From Fonticula-like sp. SCN 57-25 (Eukaryota): DNA of 63,158 nucleotides. Shown piece by piece: positions 18,233 through 56,065 of this stretch. Made by a program: the position numbers and the translations under genes. The DNA is taken from assembly GCA_001724245.1 (NCBI GenBank), contig MEDX01000007.1, positions 1 to 63,158 of the forward strand, written 5' to 3'. How positions within the stretch are numbered: position 1 is the first letter of the stretch; each line of letters begins with the position of its first letter. A model generated the notes under the pieces. It did not search any database and was not told where the DNA came from. It worked only from the letters and a program-made list of their open reading frames with translations.

Positions 18233-18520
18233 ACGTTCTTTCCATAATGTTCATACTTTCTTTTTAATTTGCCTCACTTTTCGTGGTGGTGCCACAAAAT
18301 GACCCGGTGCATGCGCCGGAATAAATGGGACTGCCATGACGATTTTTATGCAGCTAACGCGGGGGGTGGGGGAGACACATATTTGGTTCACTGGAGCGGC
18401 TTCTCGTCAGAGAATGGAATAGGCATATAGGTTATTATATTCACGCGACAGACATGAATGAAGGGAAGAAGAGTCGGAAAAACGGCATTGTTAAACTATA
18501 AAAGATGTCTACAAAGTAAA

Positions 18521-20806
18521 TTAGGCCGTAGTGCTGGGCACCTCGGTCAATTTGAGAACCTTGCCCATAGCAATTGTCTTGCCGCCGCCGCGCAGCGAGA
18601 AGCGGCCGAGCTGCGGGTAGTCCTCGTAGCGCTCGACGCAGAGCGTGTTCTCGCACACGATGCGGCAAATGCAGACCTGGCCGGCCTTGACAAAGTTCGG
18701 CGGGTCGCGGGTGCGCTTGCCCGTCTTCTTGTCGATGAGGTGGAGGAAGGCCTCGATGGTCACCTCCTCAATGCACGTGTGCAAATGCATGACGGCCTGG
18801 AAGCCGGCCACGATGATGCTCTCGTACTCGACAATGGCCAGCTGAGCGATGAACACGCGCGATGTGAGGACCGGCTTGCGCGGGTTGCACACCACAAAGC
18901 CAACAGAGACGTCCTATCAAAAGGTGAGCAAAAGAGAGAGGCAAAAAGTACACGCACGTCTTCCTCGGCGCCCTTGATACGAAGGCGGACGTTGTCACCC
19001 GCACGGGCGAACGGCGCTTCCTCCTCATCAATGGTGATGCCCGAAACTTCAATGACGTGCTGCACGGTCTGTTAGCAACTATCGCGTTATATGCTAATAC
19101 GGTCGTACGCGGTTGGGCATGACGAGAAGGCGCTGGTTGAGCTTGATGTAGCCCGACTCGACCTTCCCGGCGATCATGGTTCCCATGTCCCTGAACTTTT
19201 CCATGATGGGCATGCGGAGCGGCTGGTCGACGGGGCGCTTGATGGGGTCGAGGCTGTCGAGGAGCTCGAGGAGCGACGGGCCCTCGTGCCACGAGCACAC
19301 GCTCTTGTCGACGCGGTCCTTGACGTTGGCGCCCGAAAAGCCCGAGATGGGGAGGAAGTCGACGTCGGTCTTGAGGTTGAAGCCGGTCGACTTGATGAAC
19401 GGCTTGAGCTTGTCGAGGATCTCGTTGTAGCGGTCGGCAGACCACGCGACGGTCGAGTCGTCCATCTTGTTGATGGCGACAACGAGGCGGCGGAGGCCCG
19501 CCATCTTGGCGAGCAGCACGTGCTCGCGCGTCTGGCCGCCCTTTTCGTAACCGGCCTCAAACTCACCCTTGCGGGCCGAGATGATCAGGATGCCGACGTC
19601 GGCCTGAGCGGCGCCGCCAATCATGTTGGGCACAAAGGCCTTGTGGCCGGGGGCGTCGAGAATCGTGTAGCGCTTCTTCTCAGTCTCAAAGTAGCCGCGG
19701 CCGACCTCGACGGTCTTGCCCTTGTCGCGCTCCTCGGGGTTCGTGTCGAGCGCCCACGAAAGGAACCACGACTCACGGCCCTTCTCCTTGGCGTCGCGCT
19801 CGTACTTTTCAAGCGTGCGCTTGTCGACCTGGCCGGTAAGGAAAAGAATGTGGCCACCCATCGTGGACTTGCCGGCATCTGCGCAGAGTTAATATCAGAA
19901 AAGAAAGACAGCGCAAAGGAAAGAATAGGAACGGGTAAAAAGAGGCGAAAAGGGAAAAGCAAGAATTTGAGCTCTAAAATAGCGCGTCACACTGCAAACA
20001 GACAAAAAAACAAAGATAGAGAGCGTACCGACGTGTCCAATGAAAATGATGTTGAGGTGCTCCTTCTCGTCCTGCACCGTGAGCTCGGCCGGGATCGTGT
20101 CGTCCTCGGTGTCATCAACGGTGAGCGCGGAGAGCGCCTCGGCCGGCGGCTCGTCAACGTCCATCTGCTTGTCCTCCTCCTTGGCCTTGGCGGGCTTGGG
20201 CGCCTCCGCAGCGGGCTTCGCGGGCTCGGCGGCGGGCTTGGCCGGCTCAGCGGCGGGCTTGGCCACCTCCGAGTCGACCTCCATGGCCGGCTCAGCGGGC
20301 TTGGCCGGGGCGGCGGACGAAAGGCTCTTCACCTGCGCGGGACCGCTCGAGAGCGACTTGACCTGCGCGGGGCCGCTCGAGAGCGACTTGACCTGGGCCG
20401 GGCCGCTGGAAAGAGACTTGACCTGCGCGGGGCCGCTGGAAAGGGACTTGACGACCGCAGGGCCGGTCGATTGCGTCGGCGTCGGCAGCGGGTACGCAGG
20501 GGTCTTAACCTCGGGCTGACCCTGGTACGCCTGCTGCTGCGGCTGCTGCTGGTAATAGCCCTGCTGCTGGGGCGGGTAATAGCCCTGCTGCTGCGGGGGG
20601 TAATAGCCCTGCTGCTGGGGAGGGTAGTAACCCTGCTGCTGGGGAGGGTAGTAGCCCTGCTGCTGGGGCGGGTAGTAGCCCTGCTGGGGCTGGCCGTACG
20701 ACGGCGCGTACGCATCATAGCCGTTCGGCACAAAGGCAGGCACATTCGCGTTCATGCGCGGGCGCTGGCCCTGCTGGCCCTGCTGCTGCTGCTGCCAATC
20801 TCCCAT
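18521..20806 (-). CDS. SUP35: Translation release factor eRF3 (Sup35/GSPT)
   Basis: KEHLNIIFIGHVDAGKSTMGG..L.LTG.VDKRT.EKYER.AK..GRESW.LSWALD...EER.KGKTVEVGR.YFET is eRF3-specific; NKMD; C-terminal LGRFSLR...KTIA.GKV. Q/Y/P-rich N-terminus. Confidence 0.95.
20320..20452 (-). repeat. Coding tandem repeat, 30-nt unit (VKSLSSGPAQ), four full copies plus one partial, in eRF3 middle region
   Basis: Units like gacttgacctgcgcggggccgctc/gga recur at 30-nt spacing. Confidence 0.93.
20551..20690 (-). repeat. Coding tandem repeat, 24-nt unit (QQQGYYPP), six GYY units, in eRF3 N-domain
   Basis: Directly visible units of the form gtaatagccctgctgctgggg. Confidence 0.95.
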
Positions 20807-21177
20807 TCTTTGCGAGATCTCGTCGACTCGATCGACCGAGGCCGTGTCACCGCTGAAAGAGAAATCAAATCGATCCACGTGGTTAAGCACGCGCAATCAA
20901 GCACAACCGAAAGGGGTGCACACCAAAGAGTGGCGCTCGCGCTGCGCCTGAAAACACCAGAAAAATGCATATCACGGTGAAAAATATGCAGCATGCACCA
21001 TATTTCTTTTGATACGTGCACAGTATATTTTCGTTTTCATGTGTTTGGAGCATTTTCCCGGTGGGCCAAATAGGTATAGAAGTGAAAATAAATGACTGTA
21101 GCGCACATTCGGTAAAGGCATTGTTTATTTCTGAAAATGAATGGTATCGTTTAAAATAGAATAAGAGTGTACAAAAC

Positions 21178-23003
21178 TCAATGTGATTTGATACGGAGCG
21201 TGCCCTTGACGTCCATGAGCTGCCGGTCCAGCTCGGCAAACGTGTCGTTGAAATCGAAGCCGATGTCAAACAGCGCACTGCCCACATCGCTCGGCGGCTG
21301 CGCCGCTGGCGCCGCGCTCTCCTTCTGAGCATCGGCCGACTCGGACGGCGGCGTAAAGAGGTTGACGAGCCGGCTGGCCGGCGGCGCGGGCTTTGCCGCC
21401 TCGTCCGCCTTGGGCGCGACCGGCGTGAGCCCACGCATCCCGCGGATGGACGCGTTCACCATGGCCTTGTCGTTTTTTGACGTTTCCTATACAAAAGGCG
21501 GTGAGCAAGGCGCTGCTGCACGGCGGCGGCGGCGTACGAGAGCGGACGCAAGCGAGTCCATCTGGCCGGTCGTAGCGGCGGCGCCAGATTCCTTGGCGGC
21601 CTCGGCGGCGGCGCTCTTCTCCTTGCGTGCCTTGAGCTTCTCGGCCAGCTCGAGGATAGCGGCCTGCCGCAGCTCCACTAAAAGCCAGACGTCAGCGACC
21701 AACATTGCTATTCACTACTCGTACCCAGCTTGTCCTCTGCGCTCTTGGGCGCCTGCATCCTGCGCTTGAGCGTGCCGAGGCGGTTCATAAGCGGCGCGTT
21801 CTTGGCGAGCGGGACGTAGGCGGGCGGCGGCGGCGGCGGTGGCGGCGGCGGAGGCGGCGGCGTCGCGCCCTTCTCAAACGCGGTAAGCCGCTCCTTGAGC
21901 GACGCGGCCTCCTCACGCGCGGCGTCCATTGACGCCTCCATCTCGTCGCAGCGCTTCTGGGCGGCGACGAGCGAGCGCTGCGCGTCCTCGAGCTTGCATT
22001 CGAGCTGCGTGACAGTCATGAGGTCCACGTGCGACTCGCGGCGCGCGTCAAGCTGCAGCTGCAGGCTCTGCACCTCGCGCTCGGCCACCTCGCGGTACCC
22101 CTTCTCGACGCTCAGCGCCTGCTGCACCTTGACGAGTTCCGAAGCAGGGATCGCCTCGGCGTTCTTGGCGTCCGCCGTCGCCTTGGCCGCCTCGAGTTCG
22201 GCCGACAGGCGCGCGACCAGCTTTTCCGCCTCTTGGCGCTTGACAACCTCGGCGGTGTACCTGCGGCGCGCGTCAGTTGTGGCAAGGCGAGCAAGTAGAC
22301 GTACGTCTCGGACATGGAGCGGTACTCGCCCATCGTCTGCTCGGCCGCCTGGCTCAGCTTGGCGTTGCTGTTCTCCGCCGACTCGGCGCGCATGACCGCT
22401 TCGGCCAGGAGGGTCTGCGTCTGCTGGAGACGGTCGCCAAGTTCTGCCGACCATGCGTCAGCACGACGGTACAGTGAGTAAGCTCGTACCGCTCAGCGTC
22501 GAGATGAGGTACACATTGTCCTTGTCTTCATCCTCGAGAACGAGCGACGTCGCGGGCACGGGAGAGCGGCTCGCCTCGCGCTGAGGAGCAAGCTCCTCCA
22601 GCTGCTTCTCCAACGCGGCGCGCTGGTTCACCTCCTCGGTGTACTTTTCCTTGAGCGCGTAAAACTCTTCGAGGCCGTGCTGCGCCACTGAGAAGAAACA
22701 GGGAGTTAATGCGACATTCCACAAAAGGAATGTCAAGCGTACGCGACTTGAGTGTAACAAGCAGCTGCTGCGTGTCCGCCAGCTGACCCTTCGTCGCCGC
22801 ATGCGCGCTGGTTTCCGACTGAAGTGCGCGCGCCTGATTGATGTGCTCGACGCGAGCTATACTTACAAATCAGATGACATTATGATAAAGCGGCATCGCG
22901 TACCCCTCTCCCACAGCCGCAAGACGCGCTCAACCTTGGCAAGCGCGCCCGCCTTCTCCTCCTCTAGCGTCCGGCACCGAGCCAGAAGCGAATCAAAGTC
23001 CAT
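21178..23003 (-). CDS. Coiled-coil plus polyproline protein, shootin-1-like architecture
   Basis: MDFDSLLARC... long coiled coil, P12 tract, then ELRQAAILELAEKLK; multi-exon. Confidence 0.6.
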
Positions 23004-23218: not shown

Positions 23219-24609
23219 CTAGTTCATTGAATGCGAAGTGGAGAGCGCCTTGACCGTCTCCTCGGCGTCCTCGATATCGTCGTCCTCCTCCTCCATCGGG
23301 AAGCGCAAAATTGCCGCCACTCCGGTGAGCTGCGCCGCATCTCAGTTAGATAGAGCACATACGCAAAAATAGTAGAGCATACCTGGTCGAGCTGCTCTCC
23401 CGTGACGTGCGCCGACGAAAAGATGTGCACGGTGCCGCTTGTGAGTTTGACGAGCTCGACGAGCTCGATGTAGCGCTTGCGCGTCTCGATATTGTCGGCG
23501 CGGAACAGCGAATCAGAGACGAGCAGCGTGTCAATGGCCTGGTTGTCTGCCGCGCGCAGGACGGCCTTGTAGCCGTAGTGGGCGCGGTTCGGGTCCGAGT
23601 TCATCATCTTGTAAAAGGTGTCCATCGAGCGGAACTCGCTCGCCGCCTTGGTATCAACCATGCGTACATTCACCGTGGGGTCCTGCAGCACATCTGGTGT
23701 CGTTCGCGTAAGCGCCACGGTGAAAAAAAGCAAGCGATTGGCGTACCGCGGAGGGCGTACTTGTGGCCGCTCGACGAGTGGGCGAGGATGAACTTTGAGC
23801 GGTTCTCGAGGATGGTCTTGTTCTCGGTGCGCACCGCCTGGTCAATCATGTACTCGTACATTTGGTCGCGGAGGAAGCCGGGGCTGGCAATGATGACGCA
23901 CTTTACAACGTCAAAGTTGACGTAGCGGACGATCGCCTGGTAGACGGCGTCCAGGAACTTGTTGACGCCCTTGTCGTGCTGTGTCGTGTCGCCGCGGCGC
24001 TTCCGCGGAACACCGACTTCAATGCGCTGACGGACGATGGTGATGCTCTCCATGACAAGGCAGACGTTGGCCAGGCCCTCCTGCATAAGAATCGCAACGC
24101 AGTCGGCGCGTGCCGCGACATCACACGCTGAAGTGATGCGCTCAAGCGTCACGCTGTCCCACTCGTCCTTAAAGATCTCAAAGTCGCGGTTCAGCTCAAG
24201 ATCAAGCGTGTGAAACGCGCCCATCTTAACAAACTGTTCCAGGAGGTGTGAGCCGCGGCATCGGGACTGCTGCAAGCGCACCTTGTTCTCCTCGGTATTG
24301 CGTCCAGTGAGGCGCAGCGTGCCGGCCCCGGGATCAAAGTGTATTGTGTCCACCTGAATAGTAAGAACTGTGCGCACACGCGACGACTCCATGGAGCCCG
24401 TCTGGCTCTCACTTTGTACGCGGCTAGAGCACGAAACCTGTTAGGCGACCATCGTCGTGCACACGTCTAGCATACCGGACCGTCGTCGATCGTACCCGAT
24501 CTCCCTTCATGATCAGGTTGTACGTGTGCCACATGTCTTCCTCATTCTCAGGATAGAGCTTTATCCTCCCCGCGCCGTCGCGATCAATGTCCTTAAACTT
24601 GAGCTGCAT
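23219..24609 (-). CDS. PELO: Pelota/Dom34 ribosome rescue factor
   Basis: PENEEDMWHTYNLI..GD.V...T.R, KMGAFHTLDLE, VKCVIIASPGFL, HSSSGHKYAL, LFR..DI.TR..Y, SSAHVTGEQLDQLTGVAAILRFP. Confidence 0.96.
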
Positions 24610-48913: not shown

Positions 48914-51900
48914 TTAATGCGCCGCGGGGACCTCCTCCTGTTGGTTATGCATCTGCATCTGCTCGTTATTGGTCTGCTGGTCGCGCGTAAAGTCGTCCGA
49001 CCCATAGTACGAGTAGCCTGCACCGCTGTTGTCGGCGGGCGCGGCGGGCGCAAACACGGTCGGCGCCGGCATCGTGCTCGAGTCAACAAACATGGTCGAC
49101 GACGGCGGCATAAACGACATGGCGGGCGGGAGCGCCGCCGCGGGCCGTGCCTGCTGCTGCTGCTGCGCGGCGGGGTTCATGATGTCGACGTACTTTGACC
49201 GCGCGGGGCGCCTGCCGGCCGCTGGCATCGCTGCCGGCGGCGGCATGGCGCCACCGGGAATACCAGGCGCGCTCACGGGTCCGCCCATGGCACCCATAGC
49301 ACTACCCATGCCAGGCGGGAGCATGCTGCCGTTGGCGGGCGCCGCAGGAGCAGCCGCGGGAGCAGGCGGCGGCATCACGGGCATCTTTGGCGGCGGCGGC
49401 GGGGGCGCGTCCTCCTCGGTCACCAGAGGCGATCCCTGTACATAAGAGTCAGCAACAGACGAACAGAAAAAACATGGCGTACGTCTGAAGTGACCCAGCG
49501 GCCGAGGTTCTTGTCAAAGGTGAGCTGCAGCTGCGAGCCGAGGTTGACTTCGGTCTTTCGCCTAAAGAGCCCGGAGATGCGCGACAGAAAGCCCGCATTG
49601 TCGGCGGACGGCGAAGCGGGCCCGGACGACTCCTTTTTGGACGGCGACGCGGTCGGCGTGGACGGCGCCTTTTTCTTGTGCGCGTCATTGCCAAACCCAA
49701 GATCATCGGCGTCATCGGGCTCCTCGCGCGTCGTCTTGACGGGAGCGGGGGCGGGGGCGGGACGCGGCGGCTTGCCGGCATCCGCGCTGGTGGGCTGCGC
49801 GGGCGCCGGTTGGTAAGCAGCCGGCTGATACGACGCGGCCGGTGGCTGGTAAGCAGACTGCTGAGCTGGCTGATACGCCGACTGCTGGGCGGCCTGCGCA
49901 GGCTGATAAGCGGGCTGCGCTGGCTGGTAAGTCGGCTGAGCAGGCTGATAGGGTGCTGGTGCGCCGCCCTGTGTTGATGACATGCGCCTGTGGCCAATAC
50001 CCGCCTGCGACACTGTACGCGAAAGCGACGGCTCCGACGGCGTCCTGGCCGGGAAAAAGTCTGTCGGCGTCTGAGTGCGCGAGTTCCTCCCGCTCGGCGG
50101 CAGGAACGGCTGCTGCACCTCGCTCTCGGCCGCCTTGTCGGTGTCGTCACCAATAAGCTTCTCGATGCCGCGGTCAAAGAGGTTCCTGAGTCCGTCGCGC
50201 GACGTCACGCTCTGGAAGAGCCCGCCGAGGCGGTTGCTCGCGTTGGCAAAGGCCTCGAGGCCAGGCGTGCTCGCGCGCGTCGACGTGCGCGCCTGCTCCA
50301 TCTGGAGACGAGCAGAGAACTCGGCGACCCAGTGAAGGAACTGCCGCGAAAAGTACTCGCCGCCCTTGGCATGCTGCTGCTGCAGGCTCGACGTCACAAG
50401 GTCGACGTAGCGCTGCGCCTGTTGCAGGTGTCCAAGCTCAGAGAGCAGCGCGGCGTACCGCACGCGGAACACGTGAAGCCAGGGGAGAGAGTACTGCGTG
50501 TTGCGGCCAATGCGGGCGGCCTCAAGGAGCTCAGTGCGCTGGAAGGCGTGGGCGTCAATGCCGGGGGCGAGACCGGCACGAGAAAGCGGAGCGCCGACAA
50601 GGCGAGGCAGATCAGGCTTGGGCATGTCGGCCACAAGCAAGCTGCAACAGGATATTAGTAAAGAAAAATAAACAAAAACAGCGGAGAACGGCTCAGATCC
50701 TTAAAAAACCACCGCCCCCCCTTAAAAATCTGCATTACGTACCAAACGTGAGCGGCGTCGTATTGGCCGTTGGCGTTGAGCAAGTCGGCCAACCGCATGA
50801 GCATTCCAATGTCCGAATGGTCGCGCGCCTGAATGAGCAGCCCGAGCGTCTCCTTCCAGCGCGACGTCGCCTCTGACTTTGCCTGCTCACTCGAAAGCTG
50901 CTGCGCGTACGCGGCCGGCCCGCCGGTCGTCTGGTGAAGCGAGAGCGCCGCGAGCATGGTGCGCAGCGGGTCGCCCTCGGGGAGAGACGCCGCGGCAAAG
51001 CGCCCAACAACGGCGCGCTGGGCGGCCGCCGGGAGCAGCGTCGCCAGCGCAAGGGCGTGAGACCAGTTGCCCGCCGCGGCGGCTGCGTCGACAGCGTCCT
51101 GACGCTTGCCTGACAGGAGAAGCTGGCGGACCTGCGCGAGCGCCTTGGCCGGGTCGGCCGCCGGTGCTGCCGGCCGCTGAGCGTCATTCACAAACGAGCC
51201 AAAATTCTGCTGGCCGGCAATCAGTAGCAGCGTAAGCGCGGCCTCGGCCTTTTCACTACAGAAAATGGTCAGTTGAAGTTGGAAAATAGCTATAATTGCG
51301 CACTTTTGGTTGAAAAAGCCGCCGTTCTCGTAGAGCGACCTGATGAGTCGCCACATCACCTCGCTGTCCGACTCGCCGTACGCCGACTGCGACTGCGCCA
51401 CCATCTCGTTGAGGTACGTGACCACCGCCGACGTCGTGCCCTTCTTGAGCGGGCCGGGCCACTTTGAAATGGCCCCGGCCGTCGACGTCTGGGCCAGCAG
51501 GTCGGCCACGCGATGTACCTTGAATGGCTGCGCGCTGCCGTGGTGCTGGTTGACCAAAATAAGACGGCCGCCAAAGGCAAACACGGGGATCGAATGCGGC
51601 CGGCGAGACTTATTAAAGTCGTCCATCGCGGCGTGCTGCTGCTGCTGCTGCGCGTACGGCTGGTACGCGTCGTAGGCACCAGCGCCGTACTGCGACTGAT
51701 CGTACTGCTGCTGGCCATACTGCGACTGGTCATACTGCGACTGATCATACTGCTGCGGGGCATACTGCTGGTCCTGCGGCACGAACTGCTGCTGGTCGTA
51801 CTGCTGCTGGTCGTACTGCTGCTGGTCGTATTGCTGATCGGGAACATACTGCTGCTCGGGAGAGTACTGCGTCTCAGTGGGCGCGTACTGCGTATCTGTG

Positions 51901-54900
51901 GGGGCATATTGGTATGACTGGTCGAGAGTCTCCTGAGCGACCGACGAGTCAACGGCTGCCGTGACCGACTCTTGCTGCGTCTCGGCCGCCTCCTGTGACT
52001 CGGTGGCGTAGCCGTCGGGGACGTACGTGTTCAGCTCGGCGTTCCACGAGTACTGCATGCCCTCGTGCACAAAGGTATACACGGGCTGCGTCGACACATT
52101 CAAATTGGACTCGTCAAGGGCGCTGACGCCGCCGCCGAGCTGCGTTGACTGGTCGGCAACGGCGGAAACGTCGGCCTGCGTGGAGATCTCCGTCTGCGCC
52201 TGCGCCTGCGTCTCATCCGGCTGATCGACATACCGGATAGCGATGTAGGCGCCCTGTGCGGCGTCCCACGCGTACTCGACACCATTTGAAATAACATTGC
52301 CAATCGCCTGCTGAGCAACGCTCTCGTCAGCGACGACACTTGCATCCGCGGCGGGTTCCTCGGCGGTATATGTTTCCTGTACCGACGAATAGTCCGCGTC
52401 CTGTTGCTGCTGCTGTTCCTGCTGCTGCTCCTGCGGCTGTTCCTGTTGCTGTTCCTGGGGCTGCTCGGTGGTGTAATACCCTTCCGAGTAGGACTGGTTC
52501 TGGTCATATTGCTGGTCATACTGCTGGTAGTACTGCTGCTGCTGCTGGTCATCGGTGGCTGTCTGCTGCTGCTCGCCGTACCACGAGGAATTGTCATACT
52601 GCGCCGACGCGCCGTACTCGTTAGACTTCTCAGTCTCTCCGTAGCTCTGCTGACCGCCGACCTGATCGTCGTAGGCGGCAGTCAGAGCCGCATCCGCCTC
52701 GGCCGCCTGCTCGACGCCGATCGTCGCGAACGGGTCGTCTTCCGCCGCGACCGACTTCTCCGCCCAGTCATAAACAGAGCCGGTCGACGCGGCGGGGTTG
52801 AACTGCGCCGAAGCAGTACCGTCAAACGCCGGTGTTGACGACCGTGGAGGCGCAAACAGCGCTGTCTCGCTCTCCTCGACCGCTGCCGCGGGTGCTTGAA
52901 CCGGCTCGGCAGCCGGCTCAGCGACCTCCTGATCGCCGCCAATCTGCGAGAACGGGTCCTCGTCGTCGTGCCCGGCGGTAAAGATGGGCGCATCGGCAAA
53001 GGCACCCCCGTGCGGCGCCTCGGTCTGCAAAGTCTCCTGCCGAACGTCCAGTACGGCAGGCTCGCTCGGAATCACCGCCGGGGCGCTCTCCTCAAAGGCG
53101 GTCTCCTCAAAAGCGGCCTCCTCAAAATCGGTTTCCTGTACAACATCAACCACGGCCGGTGGGCTGGCAAACGACTCGTCCATGTCCTCGACCTCGAGGG
53201 CCGGCGCGGTGTCATGGTGCACGCCGCTAAAGTAGTCGGTGGCGGCGGCGGCGGGCGGGGCCGCATGATCCTCATTAAGGACGTCCTCCATGAGCTGGGA
53301 GGGGTCAAGCGGGGCGACCGGCGGCAGCGAAAGCGGGTCCTCAATCGAGCTCGCGGCCGAGAAAGTGGGCTGCTCGTCAGACATCTGACTATAAACAGTG
53401 CTCCACTGGTCATTCGAGGCGCTCCCACTGCTCCAGAGCGACTCTGGAACCGACGCGCTCGGCTGCGGCTCGGGCTGCGCAACGACAGGCGCGCGAATCT
53501 CTTGCGGCGGCGCACGCGGGGGCTCGCTAACCGCTTGTGTCTGCTGCGGCGGAGCGGCAATGTTGGTGTCCGCGGGGGGCGACGAGATGGAAAGCGCCGA
53601 CACCTTTTCCGTCAATGTGGAAGGAAGCCCGAGGCCCTCCTGCCTCATCTGCTCATCAATCGTGTCCAAAAAGTTCATGTCCGTGTCCCATCCGTCGGCC
53701 GACTCGGTCAGTGCGTCATCGGAAAGCGACTCTGGTACAGCAGCGGGCTCTGGTACAATAGCGGCGGACTGCGGCACAACTGCAGCGGACTGCAGCACAA
53801 CTGCAGCGGACTGCGGCACGAAAGTAGCGGGCTGAGACACAACAACAGCGGGCTTCGGCACAACAACGGCGGGCTTCGGCACAGCAGCAACGGGCGCCTC
53901 GTACTTCACCGGAACCTCCTTGGTTTCTGCCGCCACAGGTGCAGGGGCGACCGGGGAGGGCACATCGGAAGGTGCGAAGGCGTGTGATACGTCATACGCG
54001 TACGCGGATGGCGAGACGTACGTATCGTTGGGTGACAACAAAGCAGAGCTGGGCGCCTTGAGAGGCACAACTTCCAGGATGTCGTCGAGCGGCGTGTCCC
54101 ACCCGTCAACCTCATCGGCATACTCAAGGTCGACCGGGCGGGGCGTCCCAGCAGGCGAAGGATCGGCAATCGCGAGCGGCGTGACTTCGGGAACAGCGTG
54201 CGACTCAGTCACGGGAGCCGCAGGTGCATCCCAGGGTGCAGGTGCATCTGCCGGTGCGTCCCATGGGGCAGGCGCATCAGCAGGTACCTGGGCCGTTTCT
54301 GACGGTGCATCCCATGGTGCTGGTGTATCGGTCGGCGGCGCATCCCACGGAGCCGGTGCTTCTGTCGTCTTGGCATGCGCATCCCACGGAGCCGGTGCTT
54401 CAGTCGTATGGGCAGGAGCAGCAGTGTTGGTAGGGGCCGCAGGGGCATCCCACGGTGCAGGTGCTTCAGCAGTCTGAGCGGGAGCAGCAGGCGCTTCCCA
54501 TGGAGCATGTGTCGTCTGGGTAGAAGCTGGAACGTCCCAGGGCGCCGGTGCATCATCTGCTGGCGTAGACGGAACGGACACGTCCCACGGCGCAGGTGCG
54601 TCGGCCGCCGCGTGGGAAGCAGCGCCATTGCTCGAGGGCGTCGTGGAAGGCACTGCCTCCTGCTGCATCGCGGCGGTCTTTGCCGGCGGCGGAGTCGGCT
54701 CCGCCGCGTTCGAGCCAGCGAACGTCGGTGTGCTGCCTTGGTTCCCATAGGCAAAGCTGCTCACCTGGTTGGCGTACGTCCTGGGCGCATTCGGCGGCGC
54801 CGCCGAGTCGCTCGGGCGACGCTGGATGTTGGGCTGGGGCGGCAGGCTAAGATACGGAGTCTGCAGCTGCTGATGCATATACACTTCCGCCTGTGCCGAG

Positions 54901-56065
54901 TAGGACAGGCTAGAGCGCGGCGAGAGTGCCTCGCTTGGCGGGCGTGGCGGGCGGTACGGCGGTGGCGCCGCCTTTGCCTGCCAGTTGGGCGCCGGCGCAG
55001 CGTCAAAGCGGAGACTGTCCTCGCTGTAGGCGCGGGAGTGGCGCACAGGAAGGTACTCTTCCGAGCCGTCAAGGGCGTCTTCCGAAGCGGCGCGCGAGTG
55101 CTTGGACCGCGGGCGTCTGCGTGTCGGCGGCGAACTGCCATCCTCGTCATTGTTGGCCAAGTGGTCCAGCTCCAAATTGGCCTTGCGCGAGCTGCTGCGC
55201 TTCGACTTGGTACCCTTTGTCTTTTTCTTCTTTTCGCGCGTGCCGTCGTCGGGGCTCGTCGCGCGCGAGGCGGGCGTCGACGAGCGGCTCGAGTCGACGG
55301 ATCCGAGCGCCGAACGAGAAGGGAGCGGGCCAGAAGTGCTTTCTGAAACGGCGTACTGAGCGGCAGAGACCTGCTGACCACCCTGGTAGTGCGATACCTG
55401 CACATTGGGGGCCCACGTGTCGGCGCCAGCTGACAGTCAATGTGAGCAAGCGTGAGGTGAAGGCAAGGGAGACATACCAGGCGCAGCCGAATAAGACGCG
55501 TACTGCTGCTGGGCATACTGCTGCGGCTGCTGCGCTTGTTGATACTGGCGAGAAATATGGTTAACACGACAGATCAAAGCCACCAGGGGAGCACGCTTAC
55601 CTGATCATGGGCAGAGTAGGATGGGTGCGATTGTTGAGTCGCCGTTTGTGCGGGAGCAGAATACGTTGGCTGCTGCTGGTACTGCGATGACGTCTGCTCA
55701 TGCTGGGCCATGTAGGTGGTGTATGTCTCGTGGTGCACGAAGCATCCGTACTGTTCGTACCAGTAGTAACCGAGGCCGGCCATGTACTGGTCCGTCTCGC
55801 CCGTGCGCACCAATCCCTCCGGCATATAGTAATACATGTTGTTGATTTGCTCCTGCGTAAGCGCCGGCTTCACAGGCGCAGCAGCTGGCGCGGCGTAAAC
55901 GGGCGCTCCCGCCTGGCCCTGCTGGCGCTTCTGCAGCTGTTCCTGCAGCGCATTCACCGGCCGTGTGCTCGCCGCGACCGGCCTGCTGGGCTCGCTCTGC
56001 CCAAACGACGCAAACGGGTCATCCGCCGAGTAGCTGCTCGCAAACAGCTGCGACGCGTCTCCCAT
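48914..56065 (-). CDS. SEC16: COPII ER exit-site scaffold Sec16
   Basis: Long disordered N-terminus; central conserved domain (P.FAFGGRL, WPGPL.K, LLSG.R..A...A.....WSHAL.LA, GDPLRT, AAHVC-like, FQRTELLE, YA..L.ELG....A.RY); LG.....FD..L.RWV and RSKYVDIM C-terminal motifs. Confidence 0.88.
51650..51900 (-). repeat. Coding low-complexity QQYD/QSQY repeats in Sec16
   Basis: 15-nt units such as gtcgtactgctgctg. Confidence 0.8.
54225..54600 (-). repeat. Coding repeat: nine (P)APW[D/E] motifs in the Sec16 N-terminal region
   Basis: Translation shows eight PAPWD and one APWE, with DNA units such as gcatcccacggagccggtgc. Confidence 0.85.

Follow-up and report, generated by a model that had tools for sequence, protein, structure and literature searches.

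A proline-rich octapeptide head and a degenerate PAM2-like motif in the eRF3 gene of a Fonticula-like eukaryote

Sup35, the budding yeast eRF3, carries the textbook example of a prion domain, whose actual role may be that of a stress sensor, and an eRF3 gene from Fonticula-like sp. SCN 57-25 raises the question of whether a repeat-rich head in another lineage is a prion domain or supports a reversible type of assembly. The gene lies on the minus strand of contig MEDX01000007.1 (assembly GCA_001724245.1), of which positions 1 to 63,158 were analyzed (63,158 nucleotides, in the following called the window). An earlier reading of the sequence alone, made without database searches, had proposed that its first exon combines a PAM2 motif as in animals with oligopeptide repeats as in yeast Sup35. 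The analysis shows that the gene is a lineage-specific, proline-rich version of a known and widespread eRF3 layout, with a degenerate PAM2. The front of exon 1 would form the head of a disordered extension composed of an N-terminal (N) and a middle (M) region, in which the repeat tract supports weak and reversible self-association instead of acting as an amyloid prion domain, a reading that is held with moderate confidence.

The identity of the gene is given by the part following this extension. Pfam searches resulted in the detection of GTP_EFTU in exon 2 (4.7e-41) and of GTP-eEF1A_C (2.1e-31) and GTP_EFTU_D3 (1.5e-20) in exon 4, and with solved eRF3 chains (human, S. cerevisiae and S. pombe) exon 2 reached 376–380 bits, compared to 263 bits with the paralogue Hbs1L and at most 231 bits with EF1A. 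Because these domains are present and the scores of exon 2 favor eRF3 over Hbs1L and EF1A, the gene at 18521–20806 is an eRF3. The gene model was built by hand using open reading frames, GT..AG borders and homology, and the spliced model rebuilds the P-loop GHV|DAGKST across the joint of exons 1 and 2, so that domains, P-loop and bit scores all bear out the eRF3 identity claimed from the sequence alone. The open reading frame of exon 1 opens with the ATG at 20806–20804, and the preceding in-frame stop codon is located at 20897–20899 with no ATG in between. Moreover, a Logan contig of the probable source run, which belongs to a separate contig set of the same sample, spans positions 18450–21100 with 0 differences and 0 gaps.

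Exon 1 starts with MGDWQQQQQGQQGQRPRMNANVPAFVPNGYDAYAPSYGQ, followed by PQQGYYPP, four QQQGYYPP units, QQQGYYQQ and then QPQQQAYQGQPEV. The order described before, i.e., MGDWQQQQQGQQGQ preceding RMNANVPAFVP and then six octapeptides with GYY cores and almost no charge, is confirmed by the open reading frame and by the repeat finder. Tandem Repeats Finder reports the octapeptide array at 20537–20686 with a period of 24 nucleotides, 6.2 copies, 90% matches and a score of 216, and because of this score and the high proportion of matches the array is not a chance occurrence. Residues 1–96 consist of 34% glutamine, 17% tyrosine, 17% proline, 12% glycine and 3% asparagine and contain four charged residues; in residues 38–96 glutamine rises to 42%, tyrosine to 22%, proline to 20% and glycine to 14%, and no charged residue is present. 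The M part at residues 165–250 contains 23 aspartate and glutamate compared to 9 lysine and arginine residues, and comparable acidic stretches ahead of the GTPase are seen in the homologues, both when read by eye and in the MAFFT alignment A1. AlphaFold2 returned for exon 1, with a 15-row alignment, a mean predicted local distance difference test score of 47.5 with no residue reaching 70 and no secondary structure, suggesting that the N-M extension encoded by exon 1 is intrinsically disordered. The extension thereby has the make-up of a condensate-forming Sup35 N-M: its N part is disordered and rich in stickers, and the M part behind it is charged and acidic. Among the four identical core octapeptides only synonymous differences are found; over the 15 unit pairs, 15 non-synonymous codon differences were counted, all of which trace back to the two edge units. 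This synonymous drift among the core units suggests selection on the peptide.

Next to the repeats, it was the combination with PAM2 that had been regarded as unusual. A search with exon 2 yielded 5850 proteins at E ≤ 1e-60 among 7999 scored candidates, and the best 120 of these 5850 were used as homologue set (best local alignments with 47–75% identity; nearly all from fungi). The motif GH(V/I)D(A/S)GKS is present in 118 of the 120, and 106 have at least 100 residues ahead of the GTPase motif and served for the feature counts. A PAM2-type pattern is found in 101/106, a Q/G/Y-rich tract (glutamine at least 10% and tyrosine at least 3%) in 10/106 and both together in 8/106, namely in chytrids, Saitoella, Jaminaea and Verticillium. 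The Trp patch and the RMN motif occur in nine homologues each, the QQ(A/Q)Y motif (pattern QQ[AQ]Y.[AGP]) in seven and the (I/V)S(I/L)GG-type motif in 31, of which 13 have at least two copies. Eleven homologues with long N-regions were read by eye (six chytrids, Saitoella, Jaminaea, Verticillium and two further sequences), and in most of them the order of motifs is that of the window: Trp patch, (R)MN, PAM2, Q/G/Y tract, QQQAY-AP, PAK-x-(I/V)-S-(I/L)-G-G repeats and acidic tail. The same order is visible in alignment A1. Since eight of the 106 homologues have both elements and most of the long-N ones share the motif order, a Q/Y-rich tract next to PAM2 is a layout that recurs among eRF3s, and no rare mixture of animal and yeast traits; the supposed novelty of the combination is not supported. 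Kononenko et al., 2010 (PMC2811017) had already described, for some fungi, homology to the PAM2 region and a conserved Trp patch ("dSWEDd"), and Roque et al., 2015 (PMC4274632) showed that S. cerevisiae eRF3 lacks a consensus PAM2. The S. cerevisiae protein, being without PAM2, is the exception.

The N-M region itself diverges quickly. With exon 1, 63 matches at E ≤ 1e-3 were obtained in 1.84 billion representatives, four of them at ≤ 1e-10 and none at ≤ 1e-30; among the 21 of the 63 that were inspected, the only matches spanning the full region were three eRF3 N-M regions, and the rest matched one repeat array each. A word-index search with exon 1 gave six matches, including P0124 (a full eRF3) and P0126 (a partial eRF3 of 464 amino acids), and BLASTP of exon 1 against P0126 gave no alignment. 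P0126 shares 70% identity with the window along 138 residues of the GTPase and carries three consecutive PAM2-like motifs, a Q/Y/P-rich tract with QPNYYQQ units, a single AKSTISFVS and KPAAE units. Among the literature matches listed, none was, by title, on eRF3 prion-like domains in Holozoa, Holomycota or Nuclearia.

The PAM2 of the window is itself only partly preserved. In alignment A1 the motif lies on the PAM2 of the homologues, arguing for positional homology. Of the core LNxxAxxFxP the Asn, Phe and Pro are kept and Leu is replaced by Met and Ala by Val; F25 and P27 fall into invariant columns, and in the Ala column, where at least 90% of the rows agree, the window has Val. A PAM2 profile built from 105 distinct homologue PAM2 14-mers gave 5.8 bits on residues 17–28, a value that none of 1000 shuffles of residues 1–110 attained (maximum 3.0). 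For the homologues' own PAM2s the median lies at 20.9 bits and the 10th percentile at 15.6 bits, values that are inflated as the homologues trained the profile. Following the motif, NGYDAYAPSY looks like an eroded second PAM2 motif with altered spacing. The PAM2 claimed from the sequence alone thus stands as far as its position and the kept F25 and P27 are concerned, and fails as an intact motif in view of its degenerate core, its 5.8 bits and the missing Pfam match. The window PAM2 is read as a decaying remnant whose binding to PABP is uncertain; its affinity is probably low, or further contacts are required.

A true prion-forming N domain, i.e., a self-templating amyloid lowering termination in a [PSI+]-like manner, would agree with the uncharged, Q- and Tyr-rich tract and its tandem aromatic oligopeptide repeats, which are placed like those of Sup35, and with S. 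cerevisiae repeat peptides such as YNPQGGYQQY in Table 2 of PMC3941796. This explanation is nevertheless improbable. The octapeptide tract contains two prolines per eight residues, the longest stretch free of proline and charge in residues 1–96 comprises 11 residues compared to 13–56 in 12 comparators, and asparagine amounts to 3% only, while proline and charged residues are named as strongly prion-inhibiting classes in PAPA (PMC3930707, PMC4964860). Prion scoring, which the sequence-only reading had proposed as a check, gave a low value: a PAPA-like score (double 41-residue average, with an approximate propensity table and a cut-off of 0.05 and without the PAPA disorder filter) was −0.072 for the window and −0.068 for P0005, the eRF3 with which the window pairs in the trees described below, and 0.053–0.179 for the other 12 of 13 comparators including the metagenome contig L011. 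What the tract lacks in comparison to a Sup35-type domain is therefore the long proline- and charge-free stretch and, by this approximation, a score above the cut-off. The earlier argument that high proline and low asparagine speak against amyloid fits this composition. Because the tract is rich in proline, has a short proline- and charge-free stretch and a PAPA-like score below the cut-off, it is read as condensate-type and not as amyloid. It was reported that Sup35N drives reversible condensates and that this is conserved among yeasts (PMC11736011). By analogy, the six QQQGYYPP-type units might act as Tyr/Gln "sticker" tract allowing weak, multivalent and reversible self-association resembling the stress-induced condensates of the yeast Sup35 N domain, and the paired prolines every eight residues would block heritable amyloid formation. 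The basic KSLSS repeats and the acidic tail may tune solubility or dock a partner. The repeat head is thus probably a module for weak self-association and solubility rather than a prion domain, a function that we infer from its residues.

Next to the prion domain, other origins and roles of the array have to be considered. The octapeptides might be near-neutral products of replication slippage, a spacer without function beyond disorder. The array is built on CAG runs, most homologues lack a Q/G/Y-rich tract, the N-M regions diverge so fast that not a single representative is matched at ≤ 1e-30, and the Sec16-like gene of the window also has Q/Y-rich repeats. Opposed to this, the units drifted synonymously and yet kept the peptide, which is not expected for a very recent expansion, and several phyla, as well as the sister P0005, carry Q/Y-rich tracts in the corresponding place; slippage is regarded as unlikely. 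The Tyr-Pro-rich array could also be a multivalent docking site for a folded partner, such as a Pro- or Tyr-recognizing domain or a calcium-binding penta-EF-hand protein. The Pro/Gly/Tyr/Gln tails of annexins bind EF-hand partners, and almost identical arrays are found terminally in unrelated proteins, e.g., the copine P0123 and small membrane proteins, as expected for a portable ligand module. No partner was identified, no known ligand pattern was tested or matched and the flanking context is not conserved, leaving docking a small chance of being correct. Finally, exon 1 might lie outside the eRF3 message due to a wrong gene model or an alternative start, in line with the lack of RNA support for the model and with the internal Met codons at residues 18, 173 and 213. 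From the ATG the frame runs without a stop into a GT donor, and splicing to exon 2 there yields the complete P-loop GHVDAGKST; the encoded region is collinear with the N-M regions of the homologues up to KEH(L/V)N(I/V)(I/V)F in alignment A1, making this explanation extremely improbable.

Several observations weigh against a conserved, condensate-forming head with a PAM2. Since 96 of the 106 homologues do not have a Q/G/Y-rich tract, the tract is dispensable for eRF3 function. The likeness of the octapeptides to arrays elsewhere is considerable: the bacterial FHA-subtilisin P0121 has 11 copies of PQQQGYVP, a 472-amino-acid protein unrelated to eRF3 has a QQQGGYPP array, the C-terminus of the Balamuthia copine-2 P0123 a QQGGYYPP array, and small membrane proteins carry near-identical arrays as well. 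Because such arrays, with 4–11 tandem copies, occur in unrelated proteins (P0121, P0122, P0123, P0302, P0306), the array need not be specific for Sup35-type behavior; the likeness looks like convergent low complexity. The octapeptide also resembles the GYYPTSPQQ repeat of wheat high-molecular-weight glutenin. For the PAM2, 104 of the 106 homologues outscore the window and two score as low, and Pfam PAM2 (PF07145) gave no match in exon 1 at E ≤ 0.01 or in residues 1–40 at E ≤ 10, where the HMMER filters may drop short weak matches. The composition score depends on an approximate propensity table. No RNA run containing the eRF3 locus is listed among the 22 runs, so that the inclusion of exon 1 and the transcript start are unproven. 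For Dictyostelium it was reported that ERF3 aggregates under stress by means of its C domain and not of its N domain (PMC11537047). Weak and reversible self-association of the head is still the preferred reading.

A PDB search with exon 1 matched only the trypanosomatid eS21 chains 8a3w_SY, 6az1_Y and 5t2a_AR, where 20537–20689 was aligned to the 8-residue QKGARPPA repeats of their C-terminal tails (E 1.4e-6); the period is shared, and the likeness is one of composition and not of homology. The A1 profile matched only eRF3 C-terminal chains in the PDB and no Sup35 NM chain. The positions of the gene and of its elements are collected in Table 1.

Table 1. Positions of the eRF3 gene and of the elements of its N-M extension in the window.
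Feature	Position	Strand	Remark
eRF3 (SUP35/GSPT-type) gene	18521..20806	minus	four coding exons, 680-amino-acid product
Coding exons	20806-20029, 19878-19109, 19059-18958, 18913-18521	minus	stop codon 18523-18521
Introns	20028-19879 (150 nt), 19108-19060 (49 nt), 18957-18914 (44 nt)		all GT..AG
Start codon and Trp patch MGDWQ	20792..20806	minus	aligns with SWEDD-type patch of long-N fungal eRF3s
QQQQQGQQGQ after the Trp patch	20765-20794	minus	
Degenerate PAM2-like pair, MNANVPAFVP (residues 18-27, 20726-20755) and NGYDAYAPSY	20696..20755	minus	
Six tandem octapeptides PQQGYYPP, four QQQGYYPP, QQQGYYQQ	20546..20689	minus	residues 40-87
PQQQAY motif ending the Q/Y tract	20525..20542	minus	aligns with PQQQAY(Q/R/K)AP of chytrid eRF3s
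Five tandem decapeptides GPA(V/Q)VKSLSS	20315..20464	minus	residues 115-164, net charge +5
Three AKPAAE(P/A) heptapeptides	20201..20263	minus	
Acidic end of the M region	20057..20200	minus	net charge -11; up to GTPase start LNIIFIGHV (20030-20056)

The M region contains a second repeat, the decapeptides, for which Tandem Repeats Finder reports a period of 30 nucleotides and 4.8 copies. Between the units, 44 synonymous compared to 4 non-synonymous codon differences are found. MAFFT places the decapeptides on the PAK-S-I-S-L-G-G repeats of fungal eRF3s, and their period of 10 residues matches that of Saitoella. A profile of 60 fungal M-motif 12-mers gave −0.4 bits on the window decapeptides, reached by 26 of 1000 shuffles, which is a weak test; homology of the decapeptides therefore rests on position and period and not on sequence statistics. 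They are a lead and not a finding, and motif homology at the level of the sequence is not established. Twelve of 12 inspected decapeptide matches in the representative library turned out to be unrelated 10-residue repeats and were dismissed as relatives. The metagenome contig L011:169-1161 encodes an intron-less, budding-yeast-like Sup35 in which QGGYQQGGY and RGGY repeats are accompanied by three PKKVISL(G/S)S units. In S. cerevisiae, a single KPKKTLKLVSSSG is located near residues 139–151 and is among the peptides of Table 2 of PMC3941796, and this peptide overlaps the Hsp104-binding segment 129–148 and the protease-resistant Core 3 according to passages of PMC8699242 and PMC6600473. A full-text literature search for SISIGG-type words returned nothing that, by title and abstract, dealt with eRF3. 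Their strong conservation makes the five GPAQVKSLSS units a candidate for a so far undescribed linear motif that may be conserved in the M regions of eRF3s.

A bolder reading would combine these elements. In this reading, which is considered doubtful, the Sup35-type N-M layout is older than the Fungi, because it is found in a lineage outside all fungi sampled in the eRF3 trees, and a conserved 10-residue K-x-(I/V/L)-S-L docking element, present in 1–6 copies from this protist to budding yeasts and five-fold here, would, in combination with the proline-blocked Tyr/Gln tract, make the protein a purely reversible, chaperone-tuned condensate former without a prion state. It includes the overlap with the Hsp104-binding segment 129–148 and amyloid Core 3 of S. 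cerevisiae Sup35 as well as purifying selection on the element.

The position of the organism was assessed using two trees. IQ-TREE, with 39 eRF3 sequences trimmed from GHVDAGKS to the C-terminus, pairs the window with P0005 (100/96) and places this pair outside the clade of all sampled fungi (98/89), which supports the earlier view that the organism is not a yeast. In a FastTree analysis of 116 rows the pair (0.977) joins a sturgeon sequence and two animal-like sequences (0.972). For the Pelota exon of the window, the best named matches are 53–60% identical and are spread across insects, Mucorales, chytrids and Balamuthia. The lineage, placed only broadly among opisthokont-grade eukaryotes, therefore has no close reference. 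A metagenome scan for close relatives resulted in 80 loci with a best segment identity of 74% and no close relative among them. Of the Logan contigs of X1, X2, X4 and X5 compared with the locus, those of X2, X4 and X5 include near-identical pieces with 0–2 differences, none of which spans the octapeptide array. Near-identical pieces (within 18450–21100) were found in aquatic, wastewater and "fungus metagenome" runs of three other studies, showing that the organism recurs across samples. The joints reported at 20698/20764 and 18971/20769 have short sides of 20–21 letters and probably stem from CAG-rich DNA of other organisms.

Concerning the neighboring genes, a Pelota/Dom34 gene is located at 23224–24609 on the minus strand (Pfam eRF1_1, eRF1_2 and eRF1_3, with a Pelota-type N-terminus), about 2.4 kb upstream of eRF3 with one gene in between. 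This vicinity of Pelota and eRF3, two termination or rescue factors, is probably a coincidence. For the gene between them (21178–23003, minus strand), the product looks like a coiled coil and contains 13 prolines in a row, and the largest exon has no Pfam match. Furthermore, a Sec16-like gene is found at 49420–55436 on the minus strand (Pfam TPR_Sec16 and Sec16 mid-region) containing QQYDQ-type, APAPWDAP-type and YQPAQ tracts; because this gene carries such tracts, Q/Y-rich low complexity is not unique to eRF3 in this genome.

As a summary, the known role of eRF3 is unchanged by these findings, and the gene contributes one further case, from a lineage of eukaryotes that has been little sampled and lies outside the sampled fungi. 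That the layout is kept while the tract is loaded with proline and the PAM2 is decaying fits reversible assembly, and not amyloid, as the conserved property. PAM2 and Q/Y tracts coexist widely, making budding yeast the odd one out. Sup35 N domains of other fungi have reportedly been treated by Harrison in 2007 and Edskes in 2014.

Several known systems can be compared with the gene. With the S. cerevisiae Sup35 N-M region it shares a disordered extension before the same GTPase, an uncharged Q-/Y-rich N part with tandem repeats and a charged M part, and the Lys/Leu/Ser motif KPKKTLKLVSSSG (PMC3941796, Table 2) lies roughly where the window has GPAQVKSLSS. It differs in that Sup35 has no consensus PAM2 (PMC4274632), one proline per nine residues in its repeats compared to two per eight here, and a proline- and charge-free stretch of 24 residues (residues 4–27; PMC3930707) compared to 11 in the window, where asparagine accounts for 3%. 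Dictyostelium ERF3, likewise non-fungal, has an N region that is disordered and an M region that is acidic, but it lacks a Q/N-rich tract, and the C domain is the part responsible for its aggregation under stress (PMC11537047). The unrelated arrays of P0121, P0123, P0122, P0302 and P0306 are alike in the unit only (PQQQGYVP, QQGGYYPP, QQQGGYPP) and have no relation to eRF3.

Animal eRF3a/GSPT1 shares the Trp patch and the overlapping PAM2-1 and PAM2-2, seen in LNVNAKPFVPNVHAAEFVP of the sturgeon sequence P0002 compared to MNANVPAFVPNGYDAYAP of the window, and the metazoan eRF3 PAM2 consensus is given in PMC2811017. Animal eRF3a/GSPT1 has no Q/Y repeat tract, and in the window the second motif lost its spacing and the first its Ala. 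The long-N eRF3s of Spizellomyces (P0098), Phlyctochytrium (P0036), Saitoella (P0085), Jaminaea (P0063) and Verticillium (P0004) have the motif order of the window, whereas their PAM2 is canonical, their G/Y/Q tracts are irregular with few prolines and proline- and charge-free stretches of 19–56 residues, and their regions from the GTPase to the C-terminus group inside the fungal clade, with that of the window outside. Closest is P0005, an eRF3 of 763 amino acids found in Joint Genome Institute and Logan data, which is the sister in both trees, starts with MGD and has a P/Q/Y-rich N tract (21% proline, stretch of 13 residues) with a low PAPA-like score, but which differs from the window by a canonical overlapping PAM2 pair of 21.6 bits, by the absence of an exact octapeptide array and by an M region of the NQPKQAA type.

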